Shown here: positions 1 to 15,977 of the stretch, one piece after another
Position numbering within the stretch: the first letter of the stretch is position 1
Layout: each line of letters opens with the position of its first letter
Source of the DNA: a virus
Taxonomy: Duplodnaviria; Heunggongvirae; Uroviricota; Caudoviricetes
Length of the DNA: 17,345 bases
Strand: one strand, 5' to 3'
Virus record (IMG/VR): IMGVR_UViG_2690316028_000014
Span: 1 to 17,345 of that record
Program-made: the position numbers and the translations under genes
The notes under the pieces: model-generated
Told to the model about the DNA's origin: nothing
The model's database searches: none
Seen by the model: only the letters and a program-made list of their open reading frames with translations

Positions 1-168
1 GACTCCGTTACGCTTGTTGATTAATCTGTGCGCCCACGCCACAGGCTCCGCTTCGAGAGATGCCAGCGCGATACGCGCCAGCGCCGAAGCCTCACCACAT
101 TGAACGTGGTCAGTTTCGATAATTTGCTGTAACTGCTCTTTGGTGAATTCTCTGGTAATAGTGCTCAT
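1..168 (-). CDS. Hypothetical protein, N-terminal fragment (gene continues past the left window edge)
   Basis: ATG at 166-168 (minus) preceded by GGGAGG at about 8 nt; 56 sense codons with no stop to the window edge (MSTITREFTKEQLQQIIETDHVQ...); follows the stop of the upstream gene by 3 nt. Not in the ORF track because it is truncated. Confidence 0.4.
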   Translation of the reverse strand, partial: MSTITREFTKEQLQQIIETDHVQCGEASALARIALASLEAEPVAWAHRLINKRNGV

Positions 169-171
169 AGG

Positions 172-390
172 TTAGTCCTCCCTGTACGGATTTAATTTGT
201 TGTGCAGTTTGTTAAACGGCCCCCATACGATGGAGCTATACCACTCAGCTATTTTTTCTGCCTGTTCTCCTGCTAACCAGATGAGGACTATCGGTGATAT
301 TGGAGCCATTAAAATAAGAAAGAGAAGGAAAAATAGAGCCTCTTTAACCCGACTTTGACGTGGATAATTCTTCCGGAATATTTTTGTCAC
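172..390 (-). CDS. Small membrane protein, hypothetical (72 aa)
   Basis: ORF-track ORF; start overlaps the upstream HNH stop (ATGA-type coupling); one strongly hydrophobic segment (ALFFLLFLILMAPISPIVLIWLA). Confidence 0.5.
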   Translation of the reverse strand: MTKIFRKNYPRQSRVKEALFFLLFLILMAPISPIVLIWLAGEQAEKIAEWYSSIVWGPFNKLHNKLNPYRED

Positions 391-764
391 AAGTTATCCC
401 CCTCTTGATACCGCTCGAACCGGAACACAACTGGTGCGTTAGTCTGTTTAACCAGGCCAAATGATTCCGCTGTGCGGTAACTTCTTGACGCACGGCGAGT
501 TACATCAACCTGAGTGGCTATGCGGCTGCGAAAGTCTTCTACTGTGCTGCACATTTTGAACAAGTTGCATGGAATGCATGCTGGAACCATGTTGCTGACC
601 GTGTCATTTTCTGGCCTGTCCATTGCGTAGCCGTTGCTGATATTTCTTCGTACCGCTTCTACATGGTCTGCATGCCACTTATCGCCAAGTTCACAGCCGC
701 AATAAGCACAGCGACCGCCAAACTTCATGCGCAGTTCTGCACGCTGTTTTTTCGTCAGTGCCAT
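387..764 (-). CDS. HNH endonuclease
   Basis: 125 aa with paired CxxC zinc ligands and His-rich core (GGRCAYCGCEL...WHADHVEAV...ACIPCN) typical of the HNH nuclease fold; part of the tightly packed minus-strand operon. Confidence 0.75.
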   Translation of the reverse strand: MALTKKQRAELRMKFGGRCAYCGCELGDKWHADHVEAVRRNISNGYAMDRPENDTVSNMVPACIPCNLFKMCSTVEDFRSRIATQVDVTRRASRSYRTAESFGLVKQTNAPVVFRFERYQEGDNL

Positions 765-765
765 C

Positions 766-1056
766 TCATTCCCCCTTCACGCCAATGCCAGCGGCGCGGA
801 GTGCTTCTATGAAAACATCAAGCCCCTGATTAAATCCGATAGCCTCATAAAACTGTTTTGTGTGCATGTCCGGTGAATTGCGATATTCGGGCAGCTTCAC
901 CGTCCGCGCCTCCAGTTCTGCTATGCGCTTCTCTGCGGCTTCCAGCTCATCCAGCAGCGCCAGTAAATCGCGAGTTGGTACCATGAAGTTCGGCATGAAG
1001 TTATCTTTTGCCTTTTCTGCTGTTAGGCGCAGCGCCTGTTTGTCGATGTTGCTCAT
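766..1056 (-). CDS. Hypothetical phage protein (96 aa, predicted coiled-coil segment)
   Basis: ORF-track ORF; ATGA start/stop overlap with the upstream gene; LLALLDELEAAEKRIAELEAR heptad-like stretch. Confidence 0.55.
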   Translation of the reverse strand: MSNIDKQALRLTAEKAKDNFMPNFMVPTRDLLALLDELEAAEKRIAELEARTVKLPEYRNSPDMHTKQFYEAIGFNQGLDVFIEALRAAGIGVKGE

Positions 1057-1559
1057 TGCGCGTCCCCCTTGCGAATCTGGGCGGCGATGTCTTCGAGTAC
1101 ACCATCAGCGAACGAGCGATCGAAATCGCCTTCCGGCGCATCATCCATAAACTCTGTGGAGGTCAGTATCATTCGTGCGATGTCCGCAGCGTTCTTCGCT
1201 GTGTCTTCGATAAACCCAGCCTCCCATGCAGCCAGCATTCGGTTGGCAACAAAGTGAGCGCCTTCCTTGTGGGCTTGCGCCCGCACTTCAGCCAGGAAAG
1301 CCTGGTACGCAGGAATCTGCAGCACAGCCAGAGCTCCGATAATCTTCTGTACTTCTGGATGGCATTGATCGTAATGAGCATCGGTGATGAACACCGCGTC
1401 ATTGTGAATTGCTTCAATTGCACTCAACTCCGCAGCCAGCGCCGCGCACTTGGCTTCAACCACGTTAAGGAGAGTCGTAACTTCTGCCGGTGACATATGC
1501 TCACCACAATCGGCATTCATCCTGGCGCTTTTAATCAGATCTTCGTATTTATTGCTCAT
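1053..1559 (-). CDS. Hypothetical phage protein (168 aa)
   Basis: Track ORF 1053..1616 trimmed to the internal ATG at 1557-1559, which overlaps the upstream stop (ATGA) and is preceded by GGGGGAGGG; no family recognised. Confidence 0.55.
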   Translation of the reverse strand: MSNKYEDLIKSARMNADCGEHMSPAEVTTLLNVVEAKCAALAAELSAIEAIHNDAVFITDAHYDQCHPEVQKIIGALAVLQIPAYQAFLAEVRAQAHKEGAHFVANRMLAAWEAGFIEDTAKNAADIARMILTSTEFMDDAPEGDFDRSFADGVLEDIAAQIRKGDAQ

Positions 1560-1900
1560 ACCCCTGCCCTCCCCCAAACCATCAATACTCGCTTCATCGC
1601 CGCGCTGTTGCGGCACTCCTGGCAGATCACGTTTGCCTCTGTACGCTGCACCAGCTTCGAATTTCCCTTCGGCATAGCCGGGATTGTTTCTGGTGCGTAT
1701 TTCATGCCGTAATCGGTCAGCCGATAAAGCCGCTGTCCGTGCTTGCCTTCGAACTCGATCAGGCCGTCTGCCAGCAGCGTGCTTAACGGGCCGGAAATCT
1801 TTTTGGTGGTCATGCCGATCATCCTGGCAATGAAAGCACTATTCAGGCCCGGGTTATTACGCAGGGCTGCAAGAATCTGCCCACGAATTGTTATGGTCAT
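1556..1900 (-). CDS. Putative winged-helix DNA-binding protein (114 aa)
   Basis: Track ORF 1556..1948 trimmed to the ATG at 1898-1900, which overlaps the DnaC-like stop (ATGA) and is preceded by AAGGGGG; N-terminal LNSAFIARMIGMTTKKISGPLSTLLADGLIE resembles wHTH regulators; C-terminal CQEC. Confidence 0.5.
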   Translation of the reverse strand: MTITIRGQILAALRNNPGLNSAFIARMIGMTTKKISGPLSTLLADGLIEFEGKHGQRLYRLTDYGMKYAPETIPAMPKGNSKLVQRTEANVICQECRNSAAMKRVLMVWGRAGV

Positions 1901-2769
1901 GCTGCCCCCTTGGAACGGTAAGAATCCCAGGTGAATGACAGCGTGCACCCGCCGCCGTCGCTCATGCGGTCAATAACACGCTCACTCACGAACGCTGCCA
2001 GTTCTTCTTTGGTCTGGTTGCTGATCAGGATGGTCGGCTTCATACGCTCATAACGGGTGTTGATGATTTCGAACATGATCAGCTTCTCGGCCTCGCTGCC
2101 GAACTGGACGCCAACTTCGTCGATGATCAAAAGGTCCGGAGTGGTGAAGTGCGCAATCACGTCGTTCTCGCAGCGCGTCGCTGTTTTCGACCACGTTGAT
2201 TTGAATTCGCGGGCAATCTTCAGCGCGGTGGTGAAAATTACCGGGCTCTGGTGGTTCTCGATGACATAACGGGCGATCGCCAGGGCGAGGTGGTTTTTAC
2301 CGGTTCCCGGCTTGCCGCACATCACCAGGCCACCACCCTGCTTCAGGCGCTCTGGCCACTTCGCGGCATACGCCTGGCAAACCCGCAGCGCGCGCTCTGA
2401 CTCCTTCCCCACCGGCTGATAGCTTTCCAGCGTGCACGTTACAAAGCGCTCAGGGATTTCGAGCTGGCGCAGCAGGCGATCGATGTTCTGCTGGCGCGTG
2501 CGGTCTTCCCACCGCTTTTTCTCGTCATACAGGAAGGTCAGCTCATCGCGAAGGCAGCCCGGACAACGAGTCGGCGGTGACGGCAGCTTGATCAGGCTGC
2601 TGGTAAGCACGCGTTTACGCTGTTCGTACTCGCCATGTTTCTCGCAAAGCACTGTTTCGAAGACGGTCTCGCAGTTAGGGAGCTGCTCTGGAGGTCTACC
2701 AAGGACTTCCAGCATTTTTTCGATAGCGTCGATTTTTTCGAGCAGTTCCATACTCAGTCCCTCGCCCAA
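1897..2769 (-). CDS. DnaC/IstB-like AAA+ helicase loader (replication protein, lambda P position)
   Basis: Walker A GKPGTGKNHLA and Walker B LLIIDEVG; N-terminal Cys pairs; lies immediately downstream of and overlapping the O-like initiator. Confidence 0.85.
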   Translation of the reverse strand: MGEGLSMELLEKIDAIEKMLEVLGRPPEQLPNCETVFETVLCEKHGEYEQRKRVLTSSLIKLPSPPTRCPGCLRDELTFLYDEKKRWEDRTRQQNIDRLLRQLEIPERFVTCTLESYQPVGKESERALRVCQAYAAKWPERLKQGGGLVMCGKPGTGKNHLALAIARYVIENHQSPVIFTTALKIAREFKSTWSKTATRCENDVIAHFTTPDLLIIDEVGVQFGSEAEKLIMFEIINTRYERMKPTILISNQTKEELAAFVSERVIDRMSDGGGCTLSFTWDSYRSKGAA

Positions 2770-3608
2770 GATGGAATTTCAGTCTGGCCATAGTCCTTGC
2801 CAGCGAAGTTCTCAGATACGCGAGACTGATTGCGGGCTGGCTGCTTGATGCCTTTCGGCTCAAACAATCCCTGCCAGCCGTTCGCAATGCTCTGGTTGAT
2901 GATTTCTTCAGGCTGATATCCGCTGCACTTGCAACGCTCGAGCAGGTTGATGGCCTGGGTAACCGTCTGCTGAGACTTGATCGGTTTCTTCAGGTCGCGA
3001 CGATAATCGACCCATGACTTCCAGACTGAAACTGACAGCCATTCAGGAAGCTCAACACCGGCCGGATCGAACGAAGCCGGTTTGGGGGATTTAGGGGGTT
3101 TATTAATATTGTCTTTATTGTCTTTTGTATGTTTGTCTTTTGTGTTTACCTGATTTGGGTAAGTGTCGTTACCTGATTCGGGTAAACATTTCTTACCTGA
3201 TACGGGTAAATTTACCTCTTTCAGGTAAACTTTGTTTTCGTTACCTGATTTGGGTAATTTCACCCATTCGCTGACCGATTTGTTAATGCCCACAGTTCGC
3301 CCGATTTGGGTAAACACCCCGCGCCTGACTAACGCACTTTTAGCCGCAGAGCATTTGTGTGGGAGGATTCCGGTCAGGGCAGATAACTGATCATTGCTTA
3401 CCCAGTCCGCCTTTTTGTTGAAACCGTATGTTTTGCGCATTACTGCCATGAAGACCAGCAGCTGATGCTGAGACAATCCAGCCAGCATGACAGCCTCCAG
3501 AAGTTCATTGGCGATGCGCGTATAGCCATCATCAAGATCTGCCACGCGCGGCTCCTTAGGTGCCACGTCAGGCACAGGGAAATTGATTACTTCGGCAGTG
3601 TTTGCCAT
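2754..3608 (-). CDS. O: Replication initiator, lambda O-like
   Basis: N-terminal region (ANELLEAV...LSQHQLLVFMAVMRKTYGFNKKADWVSNDQLSALTGI...KCSAAKSALVRRGV) matches the lambda O N-terminal domain family; iteron array and AT-rich tract lie inside the gene as in lambda; RBS GGAG before the ATG at 3606-3608. Confidence 0.85.
   Translation of the reverse strand: MANTAEVINFPVPDVAPKEPRVADLDDGYTRIANELLEAVMLAGLSQHQLLVFMAVMRKTYGFNKKADWVSNDQLSALTGILPHKCSAAKSALVRRGVFTQIGRTVGINKSVSEWVKLPKSGNENKVYLKEVNLPVSGKKCLPESGNDTYPNQVNTKDKHTKDNKDNINKPPKSPKPASFDPAGVELPEWLSVSVWKSWVDYRRDLKKPIKSQQTVTQAINLLERCKCSGYQPEEIINQSIANGWQGLFEPKGIKQPARNQSRVSENFAGKDYGQTEIPSWARD
3146..3313. repeat. Replication origin iterons (ori-lambda-like) inside the O-like gene, with adjacent AT-rich tract at about 3100-3145
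   Basis: Five to six copies of an internally palindromic 17-mer TTACCTGATNNGGGTAA at 3146-3162, 3169-3185, 3193-3209, 3212-3228 (degenerate), 3241-3257 and a partial copy at about 3299-3313; flanked by ttattaatattgtctttattgtcttttgtatgtttgtctttt. Confidence 0.7.
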
Positions 3609-3611
3609 AAT
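3583..3611 (+). promoter_or_regulatory. Candidate sigma70 promoter antisense to the O start (possible OOP-like antisense RNA promoter)
   Basis: TTGATT (3583-3588), 17-bp spacer, CATAAT (3606-3611) on the plus strand, reading into the cII-O intergenic hairpin at 3645-3677. Confidence 0.3.
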
Positions 3612-3690
3612 TGCTCCTGTGAATTGATCCAGTTAATTCCATCTGAAAGCCGTTGGTGTTACAGCACCGCGGCTTTCGCCCATTCTGCGT

Positions 3691-3912
3691 TCATGCTTCA
3701 AAATCTCCCTTCGCTCCATCCCGGTTAGAAATCAGGATGGCCAGCAGCAGCGACATGTTCGGTACCAGGCTCTCCTGCCAGCGGCTTACGGTTGATTTAT
3801 TTCTGCCAGCAACTTCAGCTATACGTGATATCCCCAGATCAGATATCTGGCTGCGTAACCAACTCTCTATCCTCCTAGCCTCCAATTTGTTGCGTGCGGT
3901 TGATGTCTCCAT
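3691..3912 (-). CDS. cII: CII-like transcriptional activator
   Basis: 73 aa; RIESWLRSQISDLGISRIAEVAGRNKSTVSRWQESLVPNMSLLLAIL parallels the lambda CII HTH core as recalled; RBS AGAGGAAG; located downstream of cro. Confidence 0.75.
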   Translation of the reverse strand: METSTARNKLEARRIESWLRSQISDLGISRIAEVAGRNKSTVSRWQESLVPNMSLLLAILISNRDGAKGDFEA

Positions 3913-3950
3913 TTGCGATACTTCCTCTGATTTAATTGGTTATGCCGCCA

Positions 3951-4184
3951 TTAGGCGGCGTTGTTGTCGATCGGTGATGGGAACAGCGTCGGTAAGTCAG
4001 GGCGAATCTGGTAGGCCTGAATTTCACCACCAGTTGCTTTCACGATGCTGTTCACATGCTCCGGAGAAACCTTTGCTTTGTTGTGTAGCCACTTGTAAAC
4101 CGCCTGCTGCGATACTGCGCATGCTTCACCAAGGGCTTTTTGAGACCCGACGATGGTAATGGCGGTTTTAATGGTTGGATTCAT
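3951..4184 (-). CDS. cro: Cro-like HTH repressor
   Basis: 77 aa HTH protein (QKALGEACAVSQQAVYKWL) transcribed divergently from cI across an operator-rich intergenic region; RBS GGAGG. Confidence 0.7.
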   Translation of the reverse strand: MNPTIKTAITIVGSQKALGEACAVSQQAVYKWLHNKAKVSPEHVNSIVKATGGEIQAYQIRPDLPTLFPSPIDNNAA

Positions 4185-4288
4185 AACAACCTCCGTAGTG
4201 AATATAAATGAAGAATAAAACTATGGTTGTATTTAGTCAACAACCATTTTCGTTTGATGAAATAAAACCACGGTTGTAGATTGCGTAT
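4185..4288. promoter_or_regulatory. Immunity switch (OR-like): back-to-back pR-like and pRM-like promoters with ACAACC/GGTTGT operator repeats
   Basis: 25-bp palindrome ATGGTTGT-N9-ACAACCAT at 4223-4247; further ACAACC/GGTTGT copies at 4187-4192 and 4273-4278; minus-strand promoter TTGACT (complement of 4235-4240), 17 bp, TATTCT (complement of 4212-4217); plus-strand TTGATG (4254-4259), 17 bp, TAGATT (4277-4282) ending 6 nt before the cI ATG with no SD. Confidence 0.6.
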
Positions 4289-5014
4289 ATGAAAACGACA
4301 CTCGCTGAAAGACTGAAGGAAGCCAGGACATTACGAGGCCTTACACAAAAGGCTCTCGGGGATCTGGTTGGGGTAAGCCAAGCTGCTATCCAGAAGATAG
4401 AAACGGGAAAAGCTAACCAGACAACAAAGTTGGTAGAGCTGGCAAATGCTTTGATGGTTAAACCTGAATGGCTAAGTTCAGGTGTTGGCCCCATGCGATC
4501 AGACGCTAAAGAATCAAATATTGGTCCTGAATCAGAGTGGGGAACTGTCGACGCATGGGACAAAAACACCCCGCTTCCTGCTGACGAGGTTGAAGTGCCT
4601 TTTCTTAAGGATATTGAATTTGCTTGTGGCGATGGACGCGTTCAATGCGAGGATCACAATGGCTTTAAGCTCAGGTTCTCAAAGGCAACCCTCCGACGCG
4701 TTGGAGCTAATACAGATGGGTCTGGCATCCTGTGCTTCCCTGCTACTGGCGACAGTATGGAACCCGTAATACCGGATGGTACGACTGTAGCCGTCGATAC
4801 GAACAACAAACGCATAGTTGATGGGAAACTGTATGCCATTGGTCAGACAGATGGCGGGAATGGTCAACTCAAGCGCATTAAACAGCTGTATCGTAAGCCA
4901 GGCGGAAAGCTAATTATCCGCAGCTACAACAATGAGGCCTACCCTGATGAAGAAGCTGACATTGATGATGTTGAGATAATCGGCCGCCTCTTCTGGTACT
5001 CGGTATTGCTGTAG
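4289..5014 (+). CDS. cI: CI-type prophage repressor (HTH_XRE N-domain plus S24 LexA-like peptidase C-domain)
   Basis: N-terminal HTH (LTQKALGDLVGVSQAAIQKIETGK); C-terminal GDSMEP with Ser156 and Lys195/198 at lambda-CI-like spacing; candidate Cys113-Gly114 autocleavage site. Confidence 0.9.
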   Translation: MKTTLAERLKEARTLRGLTQKALGDLVGVSQAAIQKIETGKANQTTKLVELANALMVKPEWLSSGVGPMRSDAKESNIGPESEWGTVDAWDKNTPLPADEVEVPFLKDIEFACGDGRVQCEDHNGFKLRFSKATLRRVGANTDGSGILCFPATGDSMEPVIPDGTTVAVDTNNKRIVDGKLYAIGQTDGGNGQLKRIKQLYRKPGGKLIIRSYNNEAYPDEEADIDDVEIIGRLFWYSVLL

Positions 5015-5118
5015 CGGTGGCCTGAAGAGACGTTTGGTTAAGGCCAGCAACGGATCACAACAAACACATGGGGCGGCGGATTAAGGGTGATGGAGAATCG
5101 AAATAAGTTGAGGTCAAC

Positions 5119-5274
5119 ATGAACACGTTCAGCATAATCGCGATACCTTTTTTTGCCCTTTCAGTGGTTCTGTTGACTCTTGGCGCTACCAGGAAGAACC
5201 AAGCCAGCTTCATCGTTGGCGGCGTGTTTATGGCGTCATGCGTGGTTAATGCCATTATCGGCATGTCTCTTTGA
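5119..5274 (+). CDS. Small hydrophobic membrane peptide (51 aa, two predicted TM segments)
   Basis: ATG at 5119 with GAGG 5 nt upstream; MNTFSIIAIPFFALSVVLLTLGATRKNQASFIVGGVFMASCVVNAIIGMSL; below the ORF-track size cut-off; about 100 bp downstream of cI. Confidence 0.4.
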   Translation: MNTFSIIAIPFFALSVVLLTLGATRKNQASFIVGGVFMASCVVNAIIGMSL

Positions 5275-5466
5275 GCGCTATGAGATCAGGCATCCTCGTT
5301 ACTTTGTCATGTGTGACAGCCTGGTATGCACTCTGCGAGCTTTGATGTGGTTTACCACTTTAATAGTCACCGTATCACTAAACTGATTAGCTTTACTCAT
5401 ACTCTTGTGGATTCGCTATTTCTGATGTCAATGCAAAAAAATACTAAGGAAACAAAAAGGATACTT

Positions 5467-5733
5467 ATGTCAGATAACACTATTAAAATCATACCTCAGC
5501 ACATGACCGCCACATCAGTTCTTATTACGCCTGATCGTGCTGAAACAATCATTACTTTTTACCGCCATGAATTTGAGCATCACATGCAGTCTGATGAGCA
5601 AGGAAAGAATAGCTTCCAAGTAAAAGTTGAGTTGACCCCTAACATGTCAGTCTCAATGAGCCCGGATCAAGCTGTTGCATTAGTAAAATCATTACAGGTA
5701 GCTCTCAGGGATAATGGGCTATGGAAAGACTGA
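5467..5733 (+). CDS. Hypothetical protein (88 aa) in the AT-rich cI-adjacent island
   Basis: Track ORF 5326..5733 trimmed to the ATG at 5467 preceded by AAAAAGGA; visibly AT-rich coding sequence; no recognised family. Confidence 0.5.
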   Translation: MSDNTIKIIPQHMTATSVLITPDRAETIITFYRHEFEHHMQSDEQGKNSFQVKVELTPNMSVSMSPDQAVALVKSLQVALRDNGLWKD

Positions 5734-6371
5734 AGCCAGTTTCTTCAGTTCAACCTACCTCAGGAACAACATCATCAGTTCTTCCAAGTATTATAGTTAG
5801 TGCAACCCTAGCAGCGACAACCGTTTCTCCTTATGGGGATCCATCTCAGTACCAAAGTATTGGTATTGATGCTAAGGTATCAAATAGAGTTTCATACGCC
5901 ATGGACGAAACGGGTTTGCGCCCAAGTAAGGAAGATGTAGCGATGAAGAGTGATACCCTGGAGGTAAGCGTGAGCGGAATGTCCAGAGAAGAACTTGACG
6001 CAAAGCTTTCACAAAACAAATCAGAGGTAGAGTCTATTGCTGCGGAAATGCGTCGCGAATCAGCTGACTTTAAAACCTATTATACTCAGCAATTTTCTTC
6101 TATTGAGAGAGGTATTGCTGAAATTAAAGGTGAAATCGGCGGTTTGAAAACGGGACTTACAACGACTCAGTGGGCGATGGCCGTTGGCTTGACTTTAGTT
6201 ACTGTGATTCTGTCTGGCGTGATGTTAGCCTCAAGTTGGATTATCTCCGGCAATGACAAGTCACCATCAGTAACCAGCCCGGCTCCAATTATAATACAGG
6301 TACCGACACAGCAACCATTAACGAGCGCTCCAACTAACCAATCGTCATCACAACAAGCTCCTAAGCAATAA
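5721..6371 (+). CDS. Membrane-anchored protein (216 aa): S/T-rich N-region, coiled-coil, C-terminal TM helix, S/T/Q/P-rich tail
   Basis: Long open frame in AT-rich DNA; start overlaps the upstream stop by 13 nt; alternative internal start at about 5944 with strong RBS TAAGGAAG; TM segment WAMAVGLTLVTVILSGVMLASSWII; followed directly by a terminator. Confidence 0.6.
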   Translation: MERLKPVSSVQPTSGTTSSVLPSIIVSATLAATTVSPYGDPSQYQSIGIDAKVSNRVSYAMDETGLRPSKEDVAMKSDTLEVSVSGMSREELDAKLSQNKSEVESIAAEMRRESADFKTYYTQQFSSIERGIAEIKGEIGGLKTGLTTTQWAMAVGLTLVTVILSGVMLASSWIISGNDKSPSVTSPAPIIIQVPTQQPLTSAPTNQSSSQQAPKQ

Positions 6372-6376
6372 ATAAA

Positions 6377-6403
6377 CCCGGCCACCGCGCCGGGTTTTTA
6401 TTT
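6377..6403. terminator. Bidirectional Rho-independent terminator
   Basis: CCCGGC-cacc gc-GCCGGG hairpin (6377-6394) followed by TTTTTATTT on the plus strand and preceded by AAATAAATAAA (U-tract for the minus strand); ends both the plus-strand island and the minus-strand 68-aa ORF. Confidence 0.75.
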
Positions 6404-6604
6404 GCCCTTCCGTACCATCTCAGCCGCATCCCGTAGCACCCCCTTGTGGATCACGTTCCCGACGGCTTTACGCTTCCCTTCCAGAAATCCCACAATGTTG
6501 TCTTTGTTGATCTCAATCCCGTTGTAAATCAGTTCGAACACCACACACCCAACCTCTCCAGCCATGAAGGCCATCCGGTCATCTGCAAGTTCATCACGTT
6601 CCAT
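6398..6604 (-). CDS. Hypothetical protein (68 aa), convergent with the cI island
   Basis: Track ORF 6398..6958 trimmed to the ATG at 6602-6604 with GGGGGTGG upstream; E. coli-like codon choice; the longer N-terminal extension runs through AT-rich promoter DNA and is rejected. Confidence 0.5.
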   Translation of the reverse strand: MERDELADDRMAFMAGEVGCVVFELIYNGIEINKDNIVGFLEGKRKAVGNVIHKGVLRDAAEMVRKGK

Positions 6605-6688
6605 AGCCACCCCCTGATGTTTTTTGCAGCATAGCACCAATCTTTTATAAAAATAAATTCCTTTTAAATACAACCAAATAAAACCAAA

Positions 6689-6742
6689 ACAACTATAAAT
6701 ACAACTATTGTTGTTGACGATAAAACAACTATGGTTTTTAAT
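6689..6742 (+). promoter_or_regulatory. OL/pL-like operator-promoter cluster driving the early-left (recombination-int) operon
   Basis: Three direct ACAACTAT copies at 6689, 6701 and 6725 (12- and 24-bp phasing) plus an inverted GTTGTTG; promoter TTGACG (6714-6719), 17 bp, TTTAAT (6737-6742); shares CTATGGTT with the OR region. Confidence 0.5.
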
Positions 6743-7287
6743 AAGTCCATCGAAACGAAACATCGACAGCTGAGCGAAGTTAGCCAGCGGCGGACAGCAA
6801 GTCGCCTGCTTCTTTAACAAATCAGACTGAGTGACAGGCAAGCCGTAGCTCTCCTGGCAAAAAGAAATGGCACCCGATGGGATCGAGGTAAGCACTGAGT
6901 CCGTATGCGTACGGTAGGTGTAGAGGACCACGCTGCGATGAGCTGATAAGTCACTCAATTTGAAGCGCTCCGATGATGGGGCGCTGATTCAACTTAGAGG
7001 AGTGATTCCAATGAAGAACTAAAGCGGACAGACCGCAGCCTAAAGGCAATGCAGCAGTAATGATGCCGCCCTGAGTCGCCGAATGGCGAGCCTGTGTAGT
7101 GATGGGTCAAGGTTCTTATATCAAAACAAGCTCCGGTAAAGCAGCGCGAACGCCAGACGCGCACCGGTTATGAGCGGCGATGAGCGACAAGGTCTCAAGG
7201 GCATGTGCGCGGCCACTGCGAGAGTGTGGCGAAGTTTACCAGCAGCTCTTTGCGAGGGGCTGACGGTAAACAAAAAGAGGAGTGTGT

Positions 7288-7629
7288 ATGGCAGATAAAA
7301 AAACGGCGCCACTACTGCTTAACGTAGACGCCAGCGAGGTACTTACTCAGACCGGGGAGCTTTTAAAGTTACTTGAACTTCCAGCCAGTTCCTTTCAGGG
7401 AATTCCTGAGCATGTCGTCGATCTGTTTTTTGACCGTGTCCGTGGCCTGATTGACAACATCGTCCTTAGTGATTTCTCGACCACAGTCAGCACAACTGAC
7501 GCCGGTGAAATTTGTCTCAAAGTCAAAATCATCGGGCTGGTTGAACATCTCACTTCCGCAGTCAGGGCACACGGTCCGCATGGTTTGCATGAATATATCC
7601 TTTCTACTGTTGGGGAGATTAAAGAGTAA
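7288..7629 (+). CDS. Hypothetical protein (113 aa), first ORF of the early-left operon; mutually exclusive with the antisense zinc-ribbon ORF
   Basis: Strong RBS GAGGAG 5 nt before the ATG at 7288; on the strand transcribed from the pL-like promoter; Leu codons mostly CTT/TTA, so it could be a shadow of the minus-strand ORF. Confidence 0.35.
   Translation: MADKKTAPLLLNVDASEVLTQTGELLKLLELPASSFQGIPEHVVDLFFDRVRGLIDNIVLSDFSTTVSTTDAGEICLKVKIIGLVEHLTSAVRAHGPHGLHEYILSTVGEIKE
7369..7590 (-). CDS. Candidate zinc-ribbon protein (73 aa), antisense to the 7288-7629 ORF
   Basis: CPDCG-(19 aa)-CADCG four-Cys motif; RBS AAAGGA 7 nt before the ATG at 7588-7590; host-preferred codons; the Arg-rich N-terminal extension in the track (to 7821) is rejected. 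Confidence 0.35.
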   Translation of the reverse strand: MQTMRTVCPDCGSEMFNQPDDFDFETNFTGVSCADCGREITKDDVVNQATDTVKKQIDDMLRNSLKGTGWKFK

Positions 7630-7848
7630 GCGATTTCTTGCTGTTGGGGAATAGCGGGAAAGCGCGCGCCGGGCGCGGATAAATACCCCGGCACTAACTG
7701 GAATGTTTTGGGCTGGCAGACGGTTATCAGCTAGTTGGTGAGGTAATGGCTCACCAAGGCGACGACGGCCTTCCCTGCTGCTTGAAAGCGGGGAGCCAGC
7801 ACCAAAACATTTCTCCCGCATCAGCGGGTAACGACAGAGGGTAAGGGT

Positions 7849-8094
7849 ATGTCAGATAAGCAGGTTCAACTGTCTGGTAAATGCGTCTTGAAGATAGACA
7901 CCATCAAAGGCAGCAGCACTATCGAAATACCAAAAGTGAATCTCAGCGGCAAAAACAATGCAGACGCTTTGCTTAATGAAGTGTTCCATTTTGGAGTAAT
8001 GCGTCACGGGAAAAACAAGCTTCGCGAAATGCTTGAAGAGAAGCTTGATGGCTACGGGGAAGAGTACGAAAACCATGGCCTCACTTACGACTGA
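7849..8094 (+). CDS. Hypothetical early protein (81 aa, acidic C-terminus)
   Basis: RBS AGAGGGTAAGGG before the ATG; immediately followed by an intrinsic terminator. Confidence 0.6.
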   Translation: MSDKQVQLSGKCVLKIDTIKGSSTIEIPKVNLSGKNNADALLNEVFHFGVMRHGKNKLREMLEEKLDGYGEEYENHGLTYD

Positions 8095-8115
8095 CCCGCT
8101 CCGGCGGGTTTTTTA
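8095..8115 (+). terminator. Rho-independent terminator (tL1-like)
   Basis: CCCGC-tccg-GCGGG hairpin followed by TTTTTT; a second hairpin GGCAGA-N8-TCTGCC follows at 8129-8148. Confidence 0.7.
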
Positions 8116-8255
8116 TCGGCCATACATAGGCAGATTTTCGAGTCTGCCCATTTATGACAACCGGCGGCCATCCACCGCCCATTGAAACACTGAATAAATG
8201 CGTTGAAGTCTTGTATTAACCGTTCCGTTCGCCGCGATAAGGCCAAGAGGAAATC

Positions 8256-8384
8256 ATGGTAAACCAGCAGCAGATCAGAGAGGCCCAACGGCTCGCGTCG
8301 TTCGCGGTGCTCCATCGCAATGCTCCGGCGTGGGAAGAAGCAATACGCCTTTACGCCGTCGCCATCGGGAGGACTCTTCACTGA
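8256..8384 (+). CDS. Small ORF (42 aa), translationally coupled to the downstream gene
   Basis: ATG at 8256 with GAGGAA just upstream; stop TGA overlaps the next ATG (TGATG at 8382-8386); MVNQQQIREAQRLASFAVLHRNAPAWEEAIRLYAVAIGRTLH. Confidence 0.3.
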   Translation: MVNQQQIREAQRLASFAVLHRNAPAWEEAIRLYAVAIGRTLH

Positions 8385-8581
8385 TGGAAACTTTATTCGC
8401 ACTCGTCCTGACCGTGGCAATGACCAACGGTGATTATCAGGATGTCATTCTCGGCGTTTACGACAGCCAGCAGGAATGCAGCCTGGCAGCTACAGAGCAG
8501 AAAGTGTCAGCTGAGTGCTGGCCGGTAGAAAGCATCATCCGCAACGGCGAGTTCCCGGCGAAATCCATCGCGCAGCAGTAA
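8384..8581 (+). CDS. Hypothetical small protein (65 aa; hydrophobic N-terminus, acidic)
   Basis: Track ORF 8330..8581 trimmed to the ATG at 8384; METLFALVLTVAMTNGDYQ...; occupies the position lambda uses for kil/cIII-type genes. Confidence 0.5.
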   Translation: METLFALVLTVAMTNGDYQDVILGVYDSQQECSLAATEQKVSAECWPVESIIRNGEFPAKSIAQQ

Positions 8582-8651
8582 CCACCCTATTCAACCGATC
8601 GGCCTGGCTCAATGCGGGCGGGATCTGCACATCCAAATTTCAGGAGAAACC

Positions 8652-9620
8652 ATGAGCGAAGTAACGGATTTAGTCGTCATTGAGAAACAGAACGCAATGG
8701 CGGTGTTTACCAGTAAGGAACAGCTCGATCCGATTATCGAGGCCATCGAGAAAGAAGCTCGTACCCTGGTACCCGATCTGACTACGAAGAAAGGTCGCGA
8801 CGCGATCGCATCCATGGCGCATAAGGTTGCCCGCTCCAAAACCTATATCGACAACGCCGGCAAGGATCTGGTTGCCGAGCTTAAAGCCCTGCCGAAGCAG
8901 ATCGACGAAAGCCGCCGCATTGTGCGTGAGCGGCTGGACGCGCTGAAGGATGAAGTACGGCGCCCGCTCACAGAATGGGAAGCCGAGCAGGAACGCATTA
9001 AGGCTGAAGAAGCCATGAACGCGATGCACGCCGAAGCGCTGGAGATGAACATCAGGTTCGATCAGGAGCTGGCTGCCAAGTTCGAAGCGGACCACGAAAT
9101 GGCCCTGCTGATGAACAAGGATTTCGACCGTGACCGCGAAGAGCAGCGCCGCCTGGCGGAACAGGCTCAACGCGAGCACGAAGAGCGCATTAAGCAGGAA
9201 GCAGCTGACAAAGCCAAGCGCGAAGCCGAAGAGAGGCATAAAGCGGAATTGGATGCTGCAGCACGTCGCGAAGCTGATGAGAAAGCTCGCGCTGATGCCG
9301 CCGAGCGTAAGCGCAAAGAAGATGCTGACCGTGCAGAACGTGAGAAGCAGGACGCAATCGCAGAAGAAAAACGCAAAGCGCAGGAAGAAGCAGATCGCAT
9401 CAAGCGCGAAGCTGAAGCTAAAGAGAAAGCCCGTCTGGCCGAAGAGCAGCGCAAAGTTGAAGAAGAAGCGCGCCGCGCCGCAGACAAAGAGCACCGCCGC
9501 ACCGTCAACCGTCGCGTCATCGCCGACCTTATAGCTCAGGGCATCCCCGAAGAATTCGCGCAGAAAGCACTGCTGGCGATCGCTGGCGGCAAAGTGCAGG
9601 ACGCGCACATCAAATATTGA
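8652..9620 (+). CDS. Phage protein with conserved-looking N-domain and a long ER/K-rich charged helix (322 aa)
   Basis: RBS AGGAG; about 170 aa of E/R/K/A-rich sequence (KAEEAMNAMHAEALE...EEKRKAQEEADRIKREAEAKEKARLAEEQRKVEEEARR); the antisense track ORF 8670..9644 is a shadow. Confidence 0.8.
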   Translation: MSEVTDLVVIEKQNAMAVFTSKEQLDPIIEAIEKEARTLVPDLTTKKGRDAIASMAHKVARSKTYIDNAGKDLVAELKALPKQIDESRRIVRERLDALKDEVRRPLTEWEAEQERIKAEEAMNAMHAEALEMNIRFDQELAAKFEADHEMALLMNKDFDRDREEQRRLAEQAQREHEERIKQEAADKAKREAEERHKAELDAAARREADEKARADAAERKRKEDADRAEREKQDAIAEEKRKAQEEADRIKREAEAKEKARLAEEQRKVEEEARRAADKEHRRTVNRRVIADLIAQGIPEEFAQKALLAIAGGKVQDAHIKY

Positions 9621-9627
9621 GGCAACC

Positions 9628-9912
9628 ATGAACGCATACCTCACTTATGACCGCATCGAAGATCGGCGCTGGGCTGAACAGCAGCTCACCGACGAGAAAG
9701 AGAAGTGGATCGACGACCGGGCGCAACAAATCATCGACATGATGCCAAAAGAGCCGTCCGGCCTCTTCCACTTCTCCGTACCGATTGACGCCAGTCCATA
9801 CGAAGGACTTCGCAGCGATAAAGCTGGCGAGGCCTACAACGATTTCATTTCGGCAGTTGCTTACGCCCAGGCGGAATACGACTGGGAACACCGTACCGGC
9901 TGCCCATTTTAA
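9628..9912 (+). CDS. gam: Gam-like RecBCD inhibitor
   Basis: 94 aa; MNAYLTYDRIEDRRWAEQQLTDEKEK...LFHFSVPID parallels the lambda GamS N-terminus as recalled ([30 protein letters not shown]...LFESLCID); sits immediately upstream of bet. Confidence 0.8.
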   Translation: MNAYLTYDRIEDRRWAEQQLTDEKEKWIDDRAQQIIDMMPKEPSGLFHFSVPIDASPYEGLRSDKAGEAYNDFISAVAYAQAEYDWEHRTGCPF

Positions 9913-9930
9913 TTTTTGAGGGGATTAACG

Positions 9931-10776
9931 ATGGCAAACGAATTAACAATCACAGCGACGTCGCTTCAGGAGATAGGCGTCGACGTCTCCACCTGGAGCG
10001 CGCTGAAGAACAGCATCTATCCTGGCGCCAAAGACGAATCGGTAATGATGGCGCTTGACTACTGCCGCGCCCGCCATCTGGATCCGTTGCTCAAACCTGT
10101 CCACCTCGTTCCGATGTACGTCAAAGACTCGAAAACAGGTAAAGGCGAATGGCGCGACGTCGTCATGCCGGGCATCGGACTTTACCGCATTCAGGCAGAC
10201 CGCTCCGGCGATTATGCCGGGGCTCGCGAGCCCGAGTTCGGGCCCGACGTAACTCAGACGCTTACTGGTGTCGAGGTGACCTTCCCTCAGTGGTGCAAAT
10301 ACACCGTTTTCAAGCGCATGCCCAGCGGCGAGATCGTCGAGTTCAGCGCTAAAGAATACTGGATTGAAAACTACGCCACCGGCGGACGTGACACCACGGC
10401 GCCGAACGCGATGTGGAAAAAACGCCCGTATGGACAGCTGGCGAAATGCGCAGAAGCCCAGGCGTTGCGCAAGGCATGGCCTGAGATTGGACAGCAGCCT
10501 ACTGCAGAAGAAATGGAAGGCAAATCGCTGGACGTTGATATTCGTGACGTCACCCCGCGCAGCACCACAGAAGCGCTTCCACCAGCAGCAAGCGAAGAAA
10601 CACTTCAGGCGATCACCGATCTCTTAACATCGCTGAATAAAGACTGGGAGCAAGACTTCCTCCCAGTGTGCAGCGACATCTTCAAACGGCCAATTCTTGA
10701 GGCGTCAGACCTCACTGAAGAAGAGGCACAGAAAGGGTTCAACTTCCTTCAGAAAAAAGCTAAGGCGGCAGCATGA
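9931..10776 (+). CDS. bet: Bet/RecT-family single-strand annealing protein
   Basis: C-terminus [40 protein letters not shown] parallels the lambda Beta C-terminus as recalled; start set at the ATG at 9931 (RBS GAGGGGA) rather than the track TTG at 9916; followed by exo with ATGA overlap. Confidence 0.85.
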
Positions 10777-11453
10777 CACCCGAAATTATCCTGGCCAGGA
10801 CCGGCATTGATGTGTCCACCGTAGAGCAAGGTGATGAAGCATGGGCCAAATTAAGGCTCGGAGTTATCACCGCCTCTGAAGTGCACAACGTAATATCCAA
10901 GCCGCGCTCCGGCACCAAATGGACGGGCATGAAGATGTCCTACTTCCACACCCTACTCGCCGAGGTATGCACCGGCGTCGCGCCAGAGGTTAACGCCAAG
11001 GCTCTGGCCTGGGGAAAGCAGTACGAGGAAGACGCCCGCACCCTCTTCGAGTTCACCACCGACGTGAAAGTCACGGAGTCTCCGATCCTGTTCCGTGACG
11101 AGAGCATGCGCACCGCGTGCTCCCCTGACGGCCTTTGCAGTAACAATTTCGGCCTCGAATTGAAATGTCCGTTCACCTCCCGCGACTTCATGAAATTCCG
11201 CCTCGGCGGTTTCGAAGCCATTAAGTCAGAGTACATGGCCCAGGTGCAGTACAGCATGTGGGTGACCGGGAAAGAAGCCTGGTTCTTTGCCAACTACGAC
11301 CCGCGCATGAAACGCGAAGGTATTCACCACGTCGTCGTTGAGCGGGATCCGCAGTACATGACCGATTTCAACGAAATGGTGCCGGAGTTCATTGAGAAGA
11401 TGGACGAGGCGCTGGCGGAAATCGGCTTCACGTTCGGGGAGCAGTGGAAATGA
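10773..11453 (+). CDS. exo: YqaJ/lambda-Exo-like recombination exonuclease
   Basis: 226 aa, called by its position as the partner immediately downstream of bet, with ATGA translational coupling at both ends; family assigned from this context and general sequence character, not from verified motifs. Confidence 0.8.
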
Positions 11454-11878
11454 AACGCGCACCCTTTTACCGCAGGCCAGGGCGAACCTGGCAATTCTCT
11501 GGCCTCCGTGAGCGCGTTATCTGGATGATTCAGACGCGAGGCCGCCCGGTAACCGGTAGCGAAATCGCTGAGAAGTTTGGCGTAACCCTGATCGAGTTTA
11601 ACCGGGTCGCCAACGGCATCACCCGCGGCTCCGGACAGATAGCTCAGATCGTTGAGTCGGAAAAATGGCTCAACGAGGACGGCATCTGCGACCGGACATT
11701 TGACCTGGTAACGAAGCCAAAGGTCATTACACCGCAGGGAAAATCACGGCTATTCACCCGGCGCGCCATTGAGCAGTCGCAGGAAGGCAGACGGCAGGAA
11801 TGCATTGAACGTGCAGCACGCCGTCGCCGCCTGATTGCTCAGGGCCTCTACATCGACGAAATGGAGTCCATCCTATGA
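11450..11878 (+). CDS. Hypothetical protein (142 aa)
   Basis: ATG at 11450 overlaps the exo stop; in-frame GTG at 11444 is the track start; possible HTH-like segment ([22 protein letters not shown]). Confidence 0.6.
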
Positions 11879-12027
11879 CTCACGCTCACGACGACATCAG
11901 GGTAGGCACATTGTGCCTTCCCTTCATTGGTCACGGCTGGCTAATGCCATGGGGTGAAGTGGTCAGCAATCCATTAAAGGCGCAGCGGCTCGCTGAGGAA
12001 TATCGGGAAAGGCAGGAGGCGGCATGA
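11875..12027 (+). CDS. Small ORF (50 aa) coupled at both ends (ATGA/ATGA)
   Basis: ATG at 11875 overlaps the upstream stop and its own stop overlaps the methyltransferase ATG at 12024; GGAG 8 nt upstream; [50 protein letters not shown]. Confidence 0.35.
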   Translation: MTHAHDDIRVGTLCLPFIGHGWLMPWGEVVSNPLKAQRLAEEYRERQEAA

Positions 12028-14216
12028 AATACGGAAGCGTGTGCAGCGGCATAGAAGCTGCCAGTAAAGCGTGGGAACCTCTCGGCTGGAAACCTGCCTG
12101 GTTCTCTGAAATCGAACCATTCCCCTCAGCCGTCCTCGCCCATCACTGGCCGGAAGTAACCAACCTCGGCGACATGACCAAAATCGCCGATGCGGTCCGC
12201 GCTGGTGATGTCGAAGCGCCTGATGTTCTGGTCGGTGGTACGCCCTGCCAGGCATTCAGCATCGCCGGCTTACGCGAAGGCCTGTCTGACGACCGCGGGC
12301 AATTAACTCTTTCTTACGTGGAATTAGCCAATGCAATCGACACAAAGCGCCGCGAACTCGGTGAACCAGAATCAATCATCGTCTGGGAAAACGTCCCCGG
12401 CGTGCTCAGCAGCAAAGACAATGCCTTCGGGTGCTTTCTGGCAGGGCTTGCCGGAGAAAGCAGTGAGTTGCAGCCAGCAGGGGGAAAATGGACGCACGCA
12501 GGTTGTGTGTCTGGACCAGAAAGGGTTATCGCCTGGCGCGTCCTTGATGCTCAATTTTTCGGAGTGGCCCAACGACGCCGACGTGTGTTCGTTGTCGCAA
12601 GTGCTCGAAAAGGATTCGATCCCGCAGCGGTACTTTTTGAGTTCGACAGCGTGCGCCGGGATTCTGCGCCGCGCCGAGAAACGCAAAAGGCTGTTGCCGC
12701 CCTTACTGCACGAGGCGTTGGAACGTGTGGCGCAGACGACAACCAGGCACAAGCTGGACATCTGATTGCTTTTGGCGGTGGCAATACTACCGGCCATATT
12801 GATGTGGCGACCGCCTGCACCGCGCATGGGATCAGATTGGATTTTGATACTGAGACTTTCGCAGTGCACGGCACGCAGGATCCAGATACCAATTGCGAAC
12901 TGGCGCATACACTTGGGCGAAACAACGGACAAGAAAACGCCTGCATCGCATTTAGCTACAAAGATAATGGCGCTGATGCGACGTCGGATTTATCGCCAAC
13001 GATTCGCGCAGGAAACCACGATAAAAGCCATGCCAATAGCGGCCAGCCGCCAGCTATAGCGTATGCATTCAAGGCCGGACAGGGTGCTAAAGCGGGTGGC
13101 ATTGGTTACGCGGAAGAGCAATCACCGACATTAACCAGCGCCAGCAGCGGAACCAATCTTGCACCAGCGGTAATGCATGGCGTGGCAGTTCGACGACTTA
13201 CGCCAATTGAGTGCGAGCGGCTTCAGGGCTTTCCTGATAGTCACACTCTGATCGGCTGGCGCGGGAAGGACGCTGATGAATGCCCGGACGGGCCACGTTA
13301 TAAAGCTATCGGCAATAGCATGGCAGTACCGGTTATGCGTTGGATTGGTGAGCGCATCGCCGCTGCGCTTCCAGTCGAAGAGCCTGCACCGCGCAACTGG
13401 CAGCGCCCGTTCCTTAAATGGGCTGGCGGCAAATATTCGCTGCTGCCGGAACTGGATCGCCTGATCCCCGCAGGGAAACGCCTTATTGAGCCTTTTGTGG
13501 GTGGCGGCTCGGTGTTCCTTAACTCAGACAAGCACGAACGCTTTCTTCTGGCTGACGTCAACGCTGACCTGATTAACCTGTATCAGATGCTGGCGGTGGT
13601 CCCAGACTCGGTGATCTATGAAGCAATGAAGGCGTTCAGGCATCTGAATGATGCCGAAAACTACACGGAAATTCGTGAAGCATTCAACGCGCAGCGGCTG
13701 GATGCGGTTGAGCGCGCAGCAGCATTCCTTTACCTCAACCGGCACTGCTTCAACGGCCTGATCCGTTACAACCTGGACGGTTTTTTTAACGTCGGCTTTG
13801 GGAAATATAAAGCGCCATATTTCCCGGAAGAAGAGATCAGGGCATTTAAGCGGAAGGCTCACTCATGCGTATTCATGAATGCAGGCTTCAGGCGCACGCT
13901 CGCACTGGCTGGTGATGGTGACGTCATTTACTGCGATCCGCCCTATGAACCGCTTCCCGGCACCGCTGGTTTCACTAACTACGCGGCTGGTGGGTTCTCA
14001 TGGGATAGCCAGGTAGAGCTTGCGGAAAGCTGTGTGGCAGCCCACCAGCGGGGGGCAAAAGTGGTAATCAGCAATTCTACCGCACCGCGCGTAATTGAAC
14101 TTTACAAACAGCACGGCTTCACTCTGCACCGCGTAAGTGCTCGCCGCGCTATATCCAGCAAAGGCAGCACCCGCGAAACAGCGAGTGATGTCGTAGCCAC
14201 TTTGGGAGTGCAGTGA
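12024..14216 (+). CDS. Fused DNA methyltransferase: N-terminal C5-cytosine MTase (Dcm-type) plus C-terminal Dam-like N6-adenine MTase
   Basis: C5-MTase motifs SGIEAAS (I), GGTPCQAFS (IV), VWENVPG (VI), QRRRVFVVA (VIII), RRLTPIECERLQGFPD (IX), GNSMAVPV (X) within about aa 1-450; then KWAGGKYSLLP, EPFVGGGSVF and DPPY in about aa 455-730; single uninterrupted 730-codon frame with RBS AGGAGG. Confidence 0.85.
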   Translation: MKYGSVCSGIEAASKAWEPLGWKPAWFSEIEPFPSAVLAHHWPEVTNLGDMTKIADAVRAGDVEAPDVLVGGTPCQAFSIAGLREGLSDDRGQLTLSYVELANAIDTKRRELGEPESIIVWENVPGVLSSKDNAFGCFLAGLAGESSELQPAGGKWTHAGCVSGPERVIAWRVLDAQFFGVAQRRRRVFVVASARKGFDPAAVLFEFDSVRRDSAPRRETQKAVAALTARGVGTCGADDNQAQAGHLIAFGGGNTTGHIDVATACTAHGIRLDFDTETFAVHGTQDPDTNCELAHTLGRNNGQENACIAFSYKDNGADATSDLSPTIRAGNHDKSHANSGQPPAIAYAFKAGQGAKAGGIGYAEEQSPTLTSASSGTNLAPAVMHGVAVRRLTPIECERLQGFPDSHTLIGWRGKDADECPDGPRYKAIGNSMAVPVMRWIGERIAAALPVEEPAPRNWQRPFLKWAGGKYSLLPELDRLIPAGKRLIEPFVGGGSVFLNSDKHERFLLADVNADLINLYQMLAVVPDSVIYEAMKAFRHLNDAENYTEIREAFNAQRLDAVERAAAFLYLNRHCFNGLIRYNLDGFFNVGFGKYKAPYFPEEEIRAFKRKAHSCVFMNAGFRRTLALAGDGDVIYCDPPYEPLPGTAGFTNYAAGGFSWDSQVELAESCVAAHQRGAKVVISNSTAPRVIELYKQHGFTLHRVSARRAISSKGSTRETASDVVATLGVQ

Positions 14217-14458
14217 TGATGAAGCTGATTAATCGCAGTAAGCAATCACCTATTGGTCGCCGCGCTTGCGATGTTGCGCTGGCGGCGCACCACGCAAAAT
14301 ATGGCGATTACGGCAGGCAGAAGCACCAGACAAATTACACCGTTGAGGTGGATGGCATGAAGGTCACCGTCGAAGTCGTCAACCGGGCCACCAGCTATGT
14401 CGCCACAGCAATGATCGGCGTTCGTAAACTTCGAAACCTGCCAGCACAGGCACACTGA
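14216..14458 (+). CDS. Hypothetical protein (80 aa)
   Basis: ATG at 14216 overlaps the methyltransferase stop (TGATG); GGGAG 8 nt upstream; track start at 14213 is an in-frame GTG. Confidence 0.55.
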   Translation: MMKLINRSKQSPIGRRACDVALAAHHAKYGDYGRQKHQTNYTVEVDGMKVTVEVVNRATSYVATAMIGVRKLRNLPAQAH

Positions 14459-14499
14459 ATAACAATGACGGCCCCGACTGGGGCCACTGGAGAACATCG

Positions 14500-15887: not shown

Positions 15888-15901
15888 ACCCGCGTGGTTA
15901 G

Positions 15902-15977
15902 TGGTGCCGATAAGAGGAGTCGAACCTCCGACCTTCGCATTACGAATGCGCTGCTCTACCAACTGAGCTATATCGGC
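15902..15977 (-). tRNA. thrW: tRNA-Thr (anticodon CGU)
   Basis: Reverse complement reads GCCGATATAGCTCAGTTGGTAGAGCAGCGCATTCGTAATGCGAAGGTCGGAGGTTCGACTCCTCTTATCGGCACCA: 7-bp acceptor stem, D-loop AGCTCAGTTGGTAGAGC, anticodon loop TTCGTAA, T-arm GGTTCGA, encoded CCA. Confidence 0.9.

Follow-up and report, generated by a model that had tools for sequence, protein, structure and literature searches.

Where does the lambdoid prophage carried on IMG/VR virus record IMGVR_UViG_2690316028_000014 (Caudoviricetes) start its replication, and is the repeat array inside its O-like initiator gene the origin or something else? We analyzed positions 1 to 17,345 of this record, hereafter referred to as the window, in which the early region of the prophage lies on the minus strand, with the gene order Cro/YdaS-like, cII-like, O-like and DnaC-like helicase loader. 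Our analysis indicates that the region 3084/3099-3257 is very probably the vegetative origin of a lambdoid prophage located at a tRNA-Thr gene beside proA, and that this origin resembles ori-lambda and lies within the initiator gene. An earlier note on this DNA had proposed an iteron-type origin inside the O-like gene; every testable lambda-type feature at the sequence level was found, save lambda's own right-hand palindrome.

The O-like replication initiator gene (2754..3608, minus strand), which harbours the proposed origin, is an intact open reading frame (ORF) encoding 284 amino acids. Using the search pattern TTACCTGATNNGGGTAA with up to three mismatches on both strands, we found eight matches, all of them in 3146-3313; 200 shuffled sequences gave 0.23 +/- 0.49 matches, and none of the 200 reached eight. 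The array comprises five units of the form TTACC-N7-GGTAA (O-sense) in 3146-3257, each of them a 17-bp imperfect palindrome with 12 to 14 of its 17 positions self-complementary, in agreement with the palindromic 17-mer of the earlier note. Four are exact copies (3146-3162, 3169-3185, 3193-3209 and 3241-3257). The same array was recovered independently by a repeat finder and by Tandem Repeats Finder (TRF), and repeat scans of the 17.3-kb window revealed no other multi-copy repeat array or candidate origin. The array occupies codons 118-154 of O, in the interdomain linker, directly after the PF04492 match and the SEW motif.

All five iterons are located on the minus strand, and their positions are given here as the distance of each iteron centre upstream of the conserved ACAAAAGACA anchor. 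Iteron 1 (3241..3257, O-sense TTACCCAAATCAGGTAA) is the distal copy, centred at 105.5 bp and thus beyond lambda's four; it occurs in the Escherichia, Klebsiella, Enterobacter and Pseudocitrobacter group, whereas the Xenorhabdus, Pantoea and Providencia versions lack it. Iteron 2 (3212..3228, O-sense TTACCTGAAAGAGGTAA, 76.5 bp) corresponds to the position of lambda iteron 1. On the O-sense strand it retains both arms, TTACC/GGTAA, around a divergent centre, and the divergence is conserved in relatives. In almost all lineages (the window and loci L001, L003 and L101-L111 of our collection), the centre at this position is GAAAGAG or GAAAAAG, not GAATCAG, a pattern that suggests a position-specific variant, perhaps of different affinity, rather than random decay. 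Iteron 3 (3193..3209, O-sense TTACCCGTATCAGGTAA, 57.5 bp) and iteron 4 (3169..3185, O-sense TTACCCGAATCAGGTAA, 33.5 bp) correspond to lambda iterons 2 and 3, respectively; the latter has the family consensus sequence and is self-complementary at 14 of 17 positions. The sole terminator-like match in the region is iteron 4 itself, and we rejected it as a scan artefact. Iteron 5 (3146..3162, O-sense TTACCCAAATCAGGTAA), centred at 10.5 bp, corresponds to lambda iteron 4 and is proximal to the AT-rich tract.

The earlier note counted five to six phased copies, and this description stands in part. Five copies were confirmed. The candidate sixth (3297..3313, minus strand, O-sense TTACCCAAATCGGGCGA) is a half-site with three mismatches and one intact arm, which falls in the conserved N-domain coding sequence for GVFTQIGR. 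It is present in 6 of 78 related loci, all of the window's own sub-lineage, most relatives having TTTATTCAGAGCGGGCGG there, and it probably lies outside the origin. With regard to phasing, the centre-to-centre spacings of 29, 19, 24 and 23 bp are unequal and do not correspond to whole helical turns; the last three (19, 24 and 23) are nevertheless lambda-like, nearly matching lambda's 20, 24 and 23.5 bp.

Next to the iterons, 3' of them on the minus strand and thus downstream by O transcription, lies a 45-bp AT-rich tract, as the earlier note had it. This presumed DNA-unwinding element (3099..3145, minus strand, O-sense ACACAAAAGACAAACATACAAAAGACAATAAAGACAATATTAATAA) starts, like that of lambda, with the ACAAAAGACA anchor. 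Purines predominate on its O-sense strand, and it includes short repeats of the AAAGACAA type, among which TRF detected periods of 7 and 9. Positions 3099-3143 are 80% A+T, approximately 3.9 standard deviations above the window mean of 47.4% (standard deviation, 8.3%), which makes this stretch the second AT-richest 45-mer of the window; it is also among the three least stable 41-mers. The tract is 88-90% identical to those of HK97 O, P22 gene 18, mEp213 and many Shiga toxin (Stx) phages, and its P22 counterpart is located inside an annotated rep_origin, described as a "bi-directional replication origin similar to phage lambda".

The arrangement of the iterons relative to the anchor is shared with established origins. 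The four annotated iterons of lambda are centred at 10, 33.5, 57.5 and 77.5 bp, and the window matches them within 1 bp. HK97 and the Providencia phage have centres at 10-10.5, 33.5, 57.5 and 77.5 bp despite quite different repeat sequences, and SEN34 shares the three proximal offsets. For P22, a hand count gave 10.5, 33.5 and 57.5 bp, while our script matched its 78-bp copy only. The O proteins of lambda and Stx phages have been shown experimentally to bind such iterons, and unwinding depends crucially on the AT tract, which O-some formation does not require (PMC7466680; review in PMC5043065). In Stx phages, extra distal iterons are weakly bound and lengthen the O linker, yet they are still required for replication (PMC7466680).

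One alternative is that the repeats merely reflect a peptide, LPxSG[NK], that recurs in a flexible O linker, the DNA itself having no function. The region is indeed the interdomain linker, three of the five copies encode LPKSGN, LPVSGK and LPESGN, and a single-sequence structural model, itself unreliable, contains no secondary structure there. However, iterons 1-5 are read in frames 0, 2, 0, 0 and 2, so that two copies encode unrelated peptides (YLKEVN and YPNQVN) from the same DNA arms. To this we can add a conservation analysis. A protein-based scan of IMG/VR retrieved 80 loci with N-domains 83-98% identical to that of the window and 35 distinct linker sequences, 32 of which are 129 nt long and were used for the test. 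Variation is confined to 2 of 50 columns in the ten arm segments, whereas the centres and spacers vary freely, at 45 of 70 (Fisher p=2.8e-12), and third codon positions of the arms vary at 1 of 14 compared with 14 of 26 elsewhere (p=0.005), both p-values being overstated for linkers that are interrelated and not phylogenetically independent. The contrast between the arms and the centres or spacers is still stark despite this relatedness. Because the repeats are read in two frames and their arms are near-invariant, including at third codon positions, the sequences indicate that selection acts on the DNA and not on the peptide. Furthermore, unrelated iterons, with unrelated peptides, occur at the same bp offsets in lambda, HK97, P22, mEpX1 and other phages. 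We therefore consider the peptide-repeat explanation very improbable.

The length of the linker also varies. Linkers of 105, 177 and 225 nt correspond to 4, 7 and 9 units; the array therefore grows and shrinks by whole 24- or 48-nt units. Among individual loci, four units were counted in L074, seven in L020, nine in L028 and in L102 (Kluyvera), and three in L110 (Pantoea). The 9-unit arrays (225 nt) derive from tandem duplication of the 48-nt unit formed by iterons 1 and 2. One further locus, L034, has a stop codon within the array, resulting in a truncated O.

The earlier note had taken the repeats as a mark of the DNA-binding specificity of the O-like protein. This is supported by the covariation of iteron and N-domain, which was observed in both search directions. 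Each of the N-domain classes examined (at least five) has its own iteron at the same positions: TCCCT-N7-AGGGA in lambda and g341c; TTAGC-N7-GCTAA in HK97, SEN34 and phiES15, with an HHTH motif before the conserved C..AK helix; GTCTC-N7-GAGAC in mEpX1 and Morganella phage IME1369_01; TTACC-N5-GGTAA in P22, Providencia phage PSTNGR2lys and phiEt88; TCCC(C/T)GAAAAC(G/A)GGGA in SPN3UB; and TTACC-N7-GGTAA, together with PHKCSAAKS, in the window. At every locus examined, the LPHKCSAAKS motif accompanies the TTACC-N7-GGTAA iteron type. The comparison with SEN34 is informative, as this phage has exactly the first 31 residues of the window's O, a different recognition region and different iterons; therefore, specificity tracks roughly residues 40-110.

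Starting from proteins, we found at least four iterons at all 78 evaluable loci. Starting from DNA, we scanned one genome per species for a pattern of two iterons plus the anchor and found 11 species in Pseudocitrobacter, Kluyvera, Enterobacter, Xenorhabdus, Pantoea, Providencia and Klebsiella. At all 11 loci, the offsets are the same and the repeats fall within an O gene; the encoded N-domain shares 62-99% identity with that of the window and contains L(P/S)HKCSAAKS. In the more distant genera, the iterons number three or four.

These results also bear on whether the repeats belong to another class altogether, such as clustered regularly interspaced short palindromic repeats (CRISPR), directly repeated plasmid-type iterons to which monomers bind, or host-protein binding sites. 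They are short and roughly regularly spaced, and the likeness to such arrays is superficial. CRISPR arrays consist of direct repeats of approximately 23-50 bp with unique spacers of similar length, are non-coding and are usually located near cas genes. The repeats of the window, in contrast, are 17-bp units with gaps of 2-12 bp inside an intact ORF, and none of the eight neighbouring ORFs scanned has a cas-like Pfam match; the warning in the earlier note that this is not a CRISPR array was correct, if trivial. Plasmid iterons, as in P1, R6K, RK2 and pSC101, are directly repeated and monomer-bound, in contrast with the dimer-binding lambda type (PMC5043065), whereas each unit of the window is an inverted repeat, the 19-29-bp spacings are not helically phased and the initiator belongs to Phage_rep_O. 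Finally, the iteron sequence covaries with the N-domain of the phage initiator and not with the host. The probability that we assign to any of these other classes is close to negligible.

The O product matches Pfam Phage_rep_O (PF04492, amino acids 21-115, E=2.9e-33), TIGR01610 phage_O_Nterm (E=9e-25) and PHROG 678, "replication initiation O-like" (E=2.5e-87). Its N-terminal domain (amino acids 1-115, encoded by 3264..3608, minus strand), which terminates in the conserved SEW motif, is predicted to recognize the iterons. We rejected the Rac prophage oriJ/ydaU system, since YdaU is a DUF1376 protein and not Phage_rep_O. The partner helicase-loader gene, which is matched to the O C-domain, is located directly 3' of O (1897..2751, minus strand; 284 amino acids), with its ATG 2 nt past the O stop codon. 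Its product matches Pfam IstB_IS21 and Bac_DnaA and PHROG 50, "DnaC-like helicase loader" (E=1.7e-81); its DnaC-related NCBIfam matches are all under the family cut-offs. This DnaC-like loader takes the place of lambda P. Such a non-P loader is a known variation, as found in the annotations of mEpX1 and the Klebsiella phages.

Both halves of the system behave as modules. Among the 80 IMG/VR loci, the type of C-domain tracks the type of loader in 72 of the 77 with a C-domain match: 55 loci have a lambda-type C-domain with P, and 17 have a window-type C-domain with a DnaC-like loader, a pairing seen in 17 of 20 loci. At least four C-domain types are found fused to the window-type N-domain/iteron module. 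In mEpX1 and the Morganella phage the reverse is seen, a different N-domain/iteron set being combined with the C-domain type and DnaC of the window. The mosaic joint is located at, within or beside the AT tract. In complete E. coli genomes, the N-domain/iteron half matches approximately 2,400 of 5,426 at about 80% identity, and the full-length O gene matches 37, the best being AW1.7 at 98%. The phage records with the full gene are those of Klebsiella phages, in which "replication protein O" and DnaC are annotated and the origin is not.

How does this origin compare with the closest known systems? Set against the known lambdoid ori types, as the earlier note had suggested, the origin belongs to the TTACC-N7-GGTAA class. 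Ori-lambda is likewise embedded in its initiator gene, where the N- and C-domains meet, with iterons that are 17-19-bp imperfect inverted repeats, an AT tract starting with ACAAAAGACA that is purine-rich in the O sense, and a cro-cII-O-loader operon. It differs from the window in having four TCCCT-N7-AGGGA iterons instead of five TTACC-N7-GGTAA iterons, an N-domain of 46% identity, an unrelated O C-domain, P as loader instead of a DnaC-like AAA+ protein, and a right-hand palindrome that the window does not have. The Stx phages 933W and P27, with six iterons, provide a precedent for extra distal copies (3, 4, 5, 7 or 9 in the window's class); unlike the window, they have the lambda iteron sequence and lambda-type O and P.

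The origin in P22 gene 18 (rep_origin in OQ031658) belongs to the closest N-domain of different specificity (62% identity). P22, PSTNGR2lys and phiEt88 (loci L007, L008 and L099, respectively) share with the window the half-site bases TTACC/GGTAA, identical centre offsets and the C-run pair after the AT tract, the tract of P22 being 88% identical to that of the window. In these phages, however, the half-sites are 5 bp apart (a 15-bp palindrome) and there are four iterons, whereas in the window they are 7 bp apart (17 bp) and there are five. In contrast to the window, the partner of the P22-type C-domain is a DnaB-like helicase (gene 12). Within the N-domain, the differences cluster at PHKCSAAKS, which is replaced by (P/S)TKCSTAKN in P22 and the Providencia phage; the corresponding recognition motif of phiEt88 is RSKANIAKN.

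Other phages share one or both modules with the window. Coliphages 4A7, Lambda_4C10, Perceval, Turner and the PhiR series, together with O157:H7 prophages, have the same five iterons, spacing and AT tract, with N-domains of these coliphages and E. coli prophages 83-85% identical to that of the window; unlike the window, they have a lambda-type O C-domain, the lambda palindrome and a P gene. Both modules are shared by Klebsiella phages ST11-VIM1phi8.2, GZ7 and 6 LV-2017 (approximately 80% DNA identity over the O region), whose distal iteron, unlike that of the window, is degenerate (TTACCCATAAAAGGTAC), by the E. coli AW1.7 prophage (98% DNA identity) and by Enterobacter prophages (113-114 of 115 N-domain residues). 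In the records of all these full-length homologues, the origin is unannotated. Phages mEpX1 and Morganella IME1369_01 resemble the window in the O C-domain type, the C-run pair and the downstream DnaC-type loader, and differ in the N-domain and in their GTCTC-N7-GAGAC iterons; the O of mEpX1 is 48% identical overall to that of the window, with a clearly homologous C-half. Our literature search for this iteron, and for phage 82 in particular, found nothing usable. Phage 82 is reportedly the subject of work by Moore et al. (Gene, 1981), in which it is said to have five repeats and a lambda-compatible O C-terminus; its link to the window is an unverified lead.

At the right edge of the AT tract, we identified a pair of C-runs (3084..3098, minus strand, O-sense CCCCCTAAATCCCCC; CCCCC-N5-CCCCC), whose membership of the origin is uncertain. 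A C4-6-N3-7-C4-6 pattern occurs 30-59 nt (mostly 37-45 nt) past the anchor in 19 of 37 distinct sequences. It spans at least five unrelated O C-domain types (L006-L008, L093-L095, L099, L100, L104, L106 and L108) and is likewise present in P22-, HK97- and mEpX1-type genes. At the same position, the lambda-type genes have the GAGAATTCT palindrome. The C-run pair is possibly an origin boundary element, or merely encodes a proline-rich hinge (PPKSP; TPLTP).

By analogy with lambda O, on which its steps of dimer binding, unwinding and helicase loading are modelled, initiation might proceed as follows. Derepression would allow transcription from a pR-like promoter through cro, cII, O and the DnaC-like gene. 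Dimers of O would then bind the five 17-bp TTACC-N7-GGTAA repeats via the N-terminal domain (amino acids 1-115) and form an "O-some", which, on supercoiled DNA, would destabilize the adjoining 45-bp AT-rich tract. The C-terminal domain of O would recruit the phage DnaC-like loader, and host DnaB would thus be delivered to the opened tract.

Several points weigh against this assignment, in addition to the relatedness of the linkers noted above. O binding, unwinding and initiation are all read across by analogy, and what can be said of the prophage, its competence included, comes from 17 kb only. The right-hand palindrome of ori-lambda is absent, and an inverted-repeat search of 3000-3150 was empty; in our judgement, this palindrome is a feature of the lambda subtype and does not define the family. 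With a DnaC-like loader in place of P, helicase loading may not follow the lambda pathway in every detail. Lastly, the single-sequence AlphaFold2 model of O was unusable, with a mean predicted local distance difference test (pLDDT) score of 40 and a predicted template modelling (pTM) score of 0.24; a PDB sequence search with O gave two weak, irrelevant matches only.

A related question is whether the origin fires at all. The O sites could mainly constitute a regulatory or incompatibility array, acting in O titration, autoregulation or phage exclusion, or the prophage could be cryptic. Two reports describe interference by ectopic ori-lambda copies with the replication of phages sharing the replication region (PMC3349717, PMC4488673). 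The variation in copy number from 3 to 9 in relatives also speaks for this reading, and the stop codon in the array of L034 indicates that prophage genes of this kind do decay. The window, however, has an intact O ORF, loader gene and cro-cII-O operon, the full origin geometry and the AT tract are kept, and the arms are strongly constrained across many lineages. Moreover, regulatory roles would supplement origin function, not supplant it. We regard a mainly regulatory array or a silent origin as distinctly improbable, and a functional origin remains our preferred assignment. A textbook lambda-style origin, common in enterobacterial prophages, is thus well supported and not surprising.

The pairing of the window with the P22 class led us to a more speculative proposal, which we consider unlikely although worth stating: that specificity was switched through dimer/half-site geometry and not through base contacts, that copy number tunes the system and that the half-site at 3297-3313 is an auxiliary O site. 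If this were true, the window/P22 pair would offer a compact natural model of initiator-origin co-evolution towards new incompatibility types. With regard to copy number, the variation between 3 and 9 iterons in 24- or 48-bp units may tune replication, by analogy with Stx phages.

The genes around O are those of a lambdoid early region. A Cro/YdaS-like gene (3951-4184, minus strand; Pfam YdaS_toxin, E=1e-18, HTH_3 and P22_Cro) and a cII-like gene (3691-3912, minus strand; Pfam Phage_CII) have the orientation of O and form with it an early rightward operon, the transcription of which would cross the origin. A promoter scan located a promoter-like site 5' of the Cro/YdaS-like gene (4240-4212, minus strand), and a gene for a CI-like S24 repressor, identified by Pfam, is divergent from it (4289-5014, plus strand). 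At the cII position, relatives with the window's O N-domain (L011/L003) have a YdaT-domain protein, whereas the window has a lambda-type CII; therefore, immunity and replication modules have been reassorted.

Antisense to the start of O and to the cII-O gap, we observed an oop-like element (3583-3640, plus strand) with a promoter-like TTGATT-17-CATAAT sequence and an upstream TG. Its downstream part is conserved with the oop promoter/5' region of lambda and P22 (CATAAT..CTCCTGT..GATCCAGT); its 3' terminator part is not conserved, and an Rfam scan gave no match for it. The only Rfam match in the window was the tRNA, a tRNA-Thr(CGT) (15902-15977, minus strand). This gene is flanked by an integrase-sized ORF, called by size alone (14724-15887, plus strand), and by a long ORF (16092-17345, minus strand) at a position annotated as proA in matching E. 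coli records. The prophage thus appears to be inserted at tRNA-Thr beside proA, presumably the thrW integration site. Elsewhere in the window, the AT-richest stretch is located at 6640-6745 (87% A+T over 45 bp, 6639-6683) and includes a 28-nt imperfect direct repeat with copies at 6647-6674 and 6678-6705.

The general understanding of lambdoid replication is left unchanged by these results. Their value lies in annotation, as the origin, five predicted O sites, an unwinding element and the module boundaries have been left unannotated in databases. Roughly 45% of complete E. coli genomes carry the module, which also occurs across Enterobacterales, and its annotation aids in predicting incompatibility and exclusion between co-resident lambdoid prophages and in interpreting their mosaic joints.

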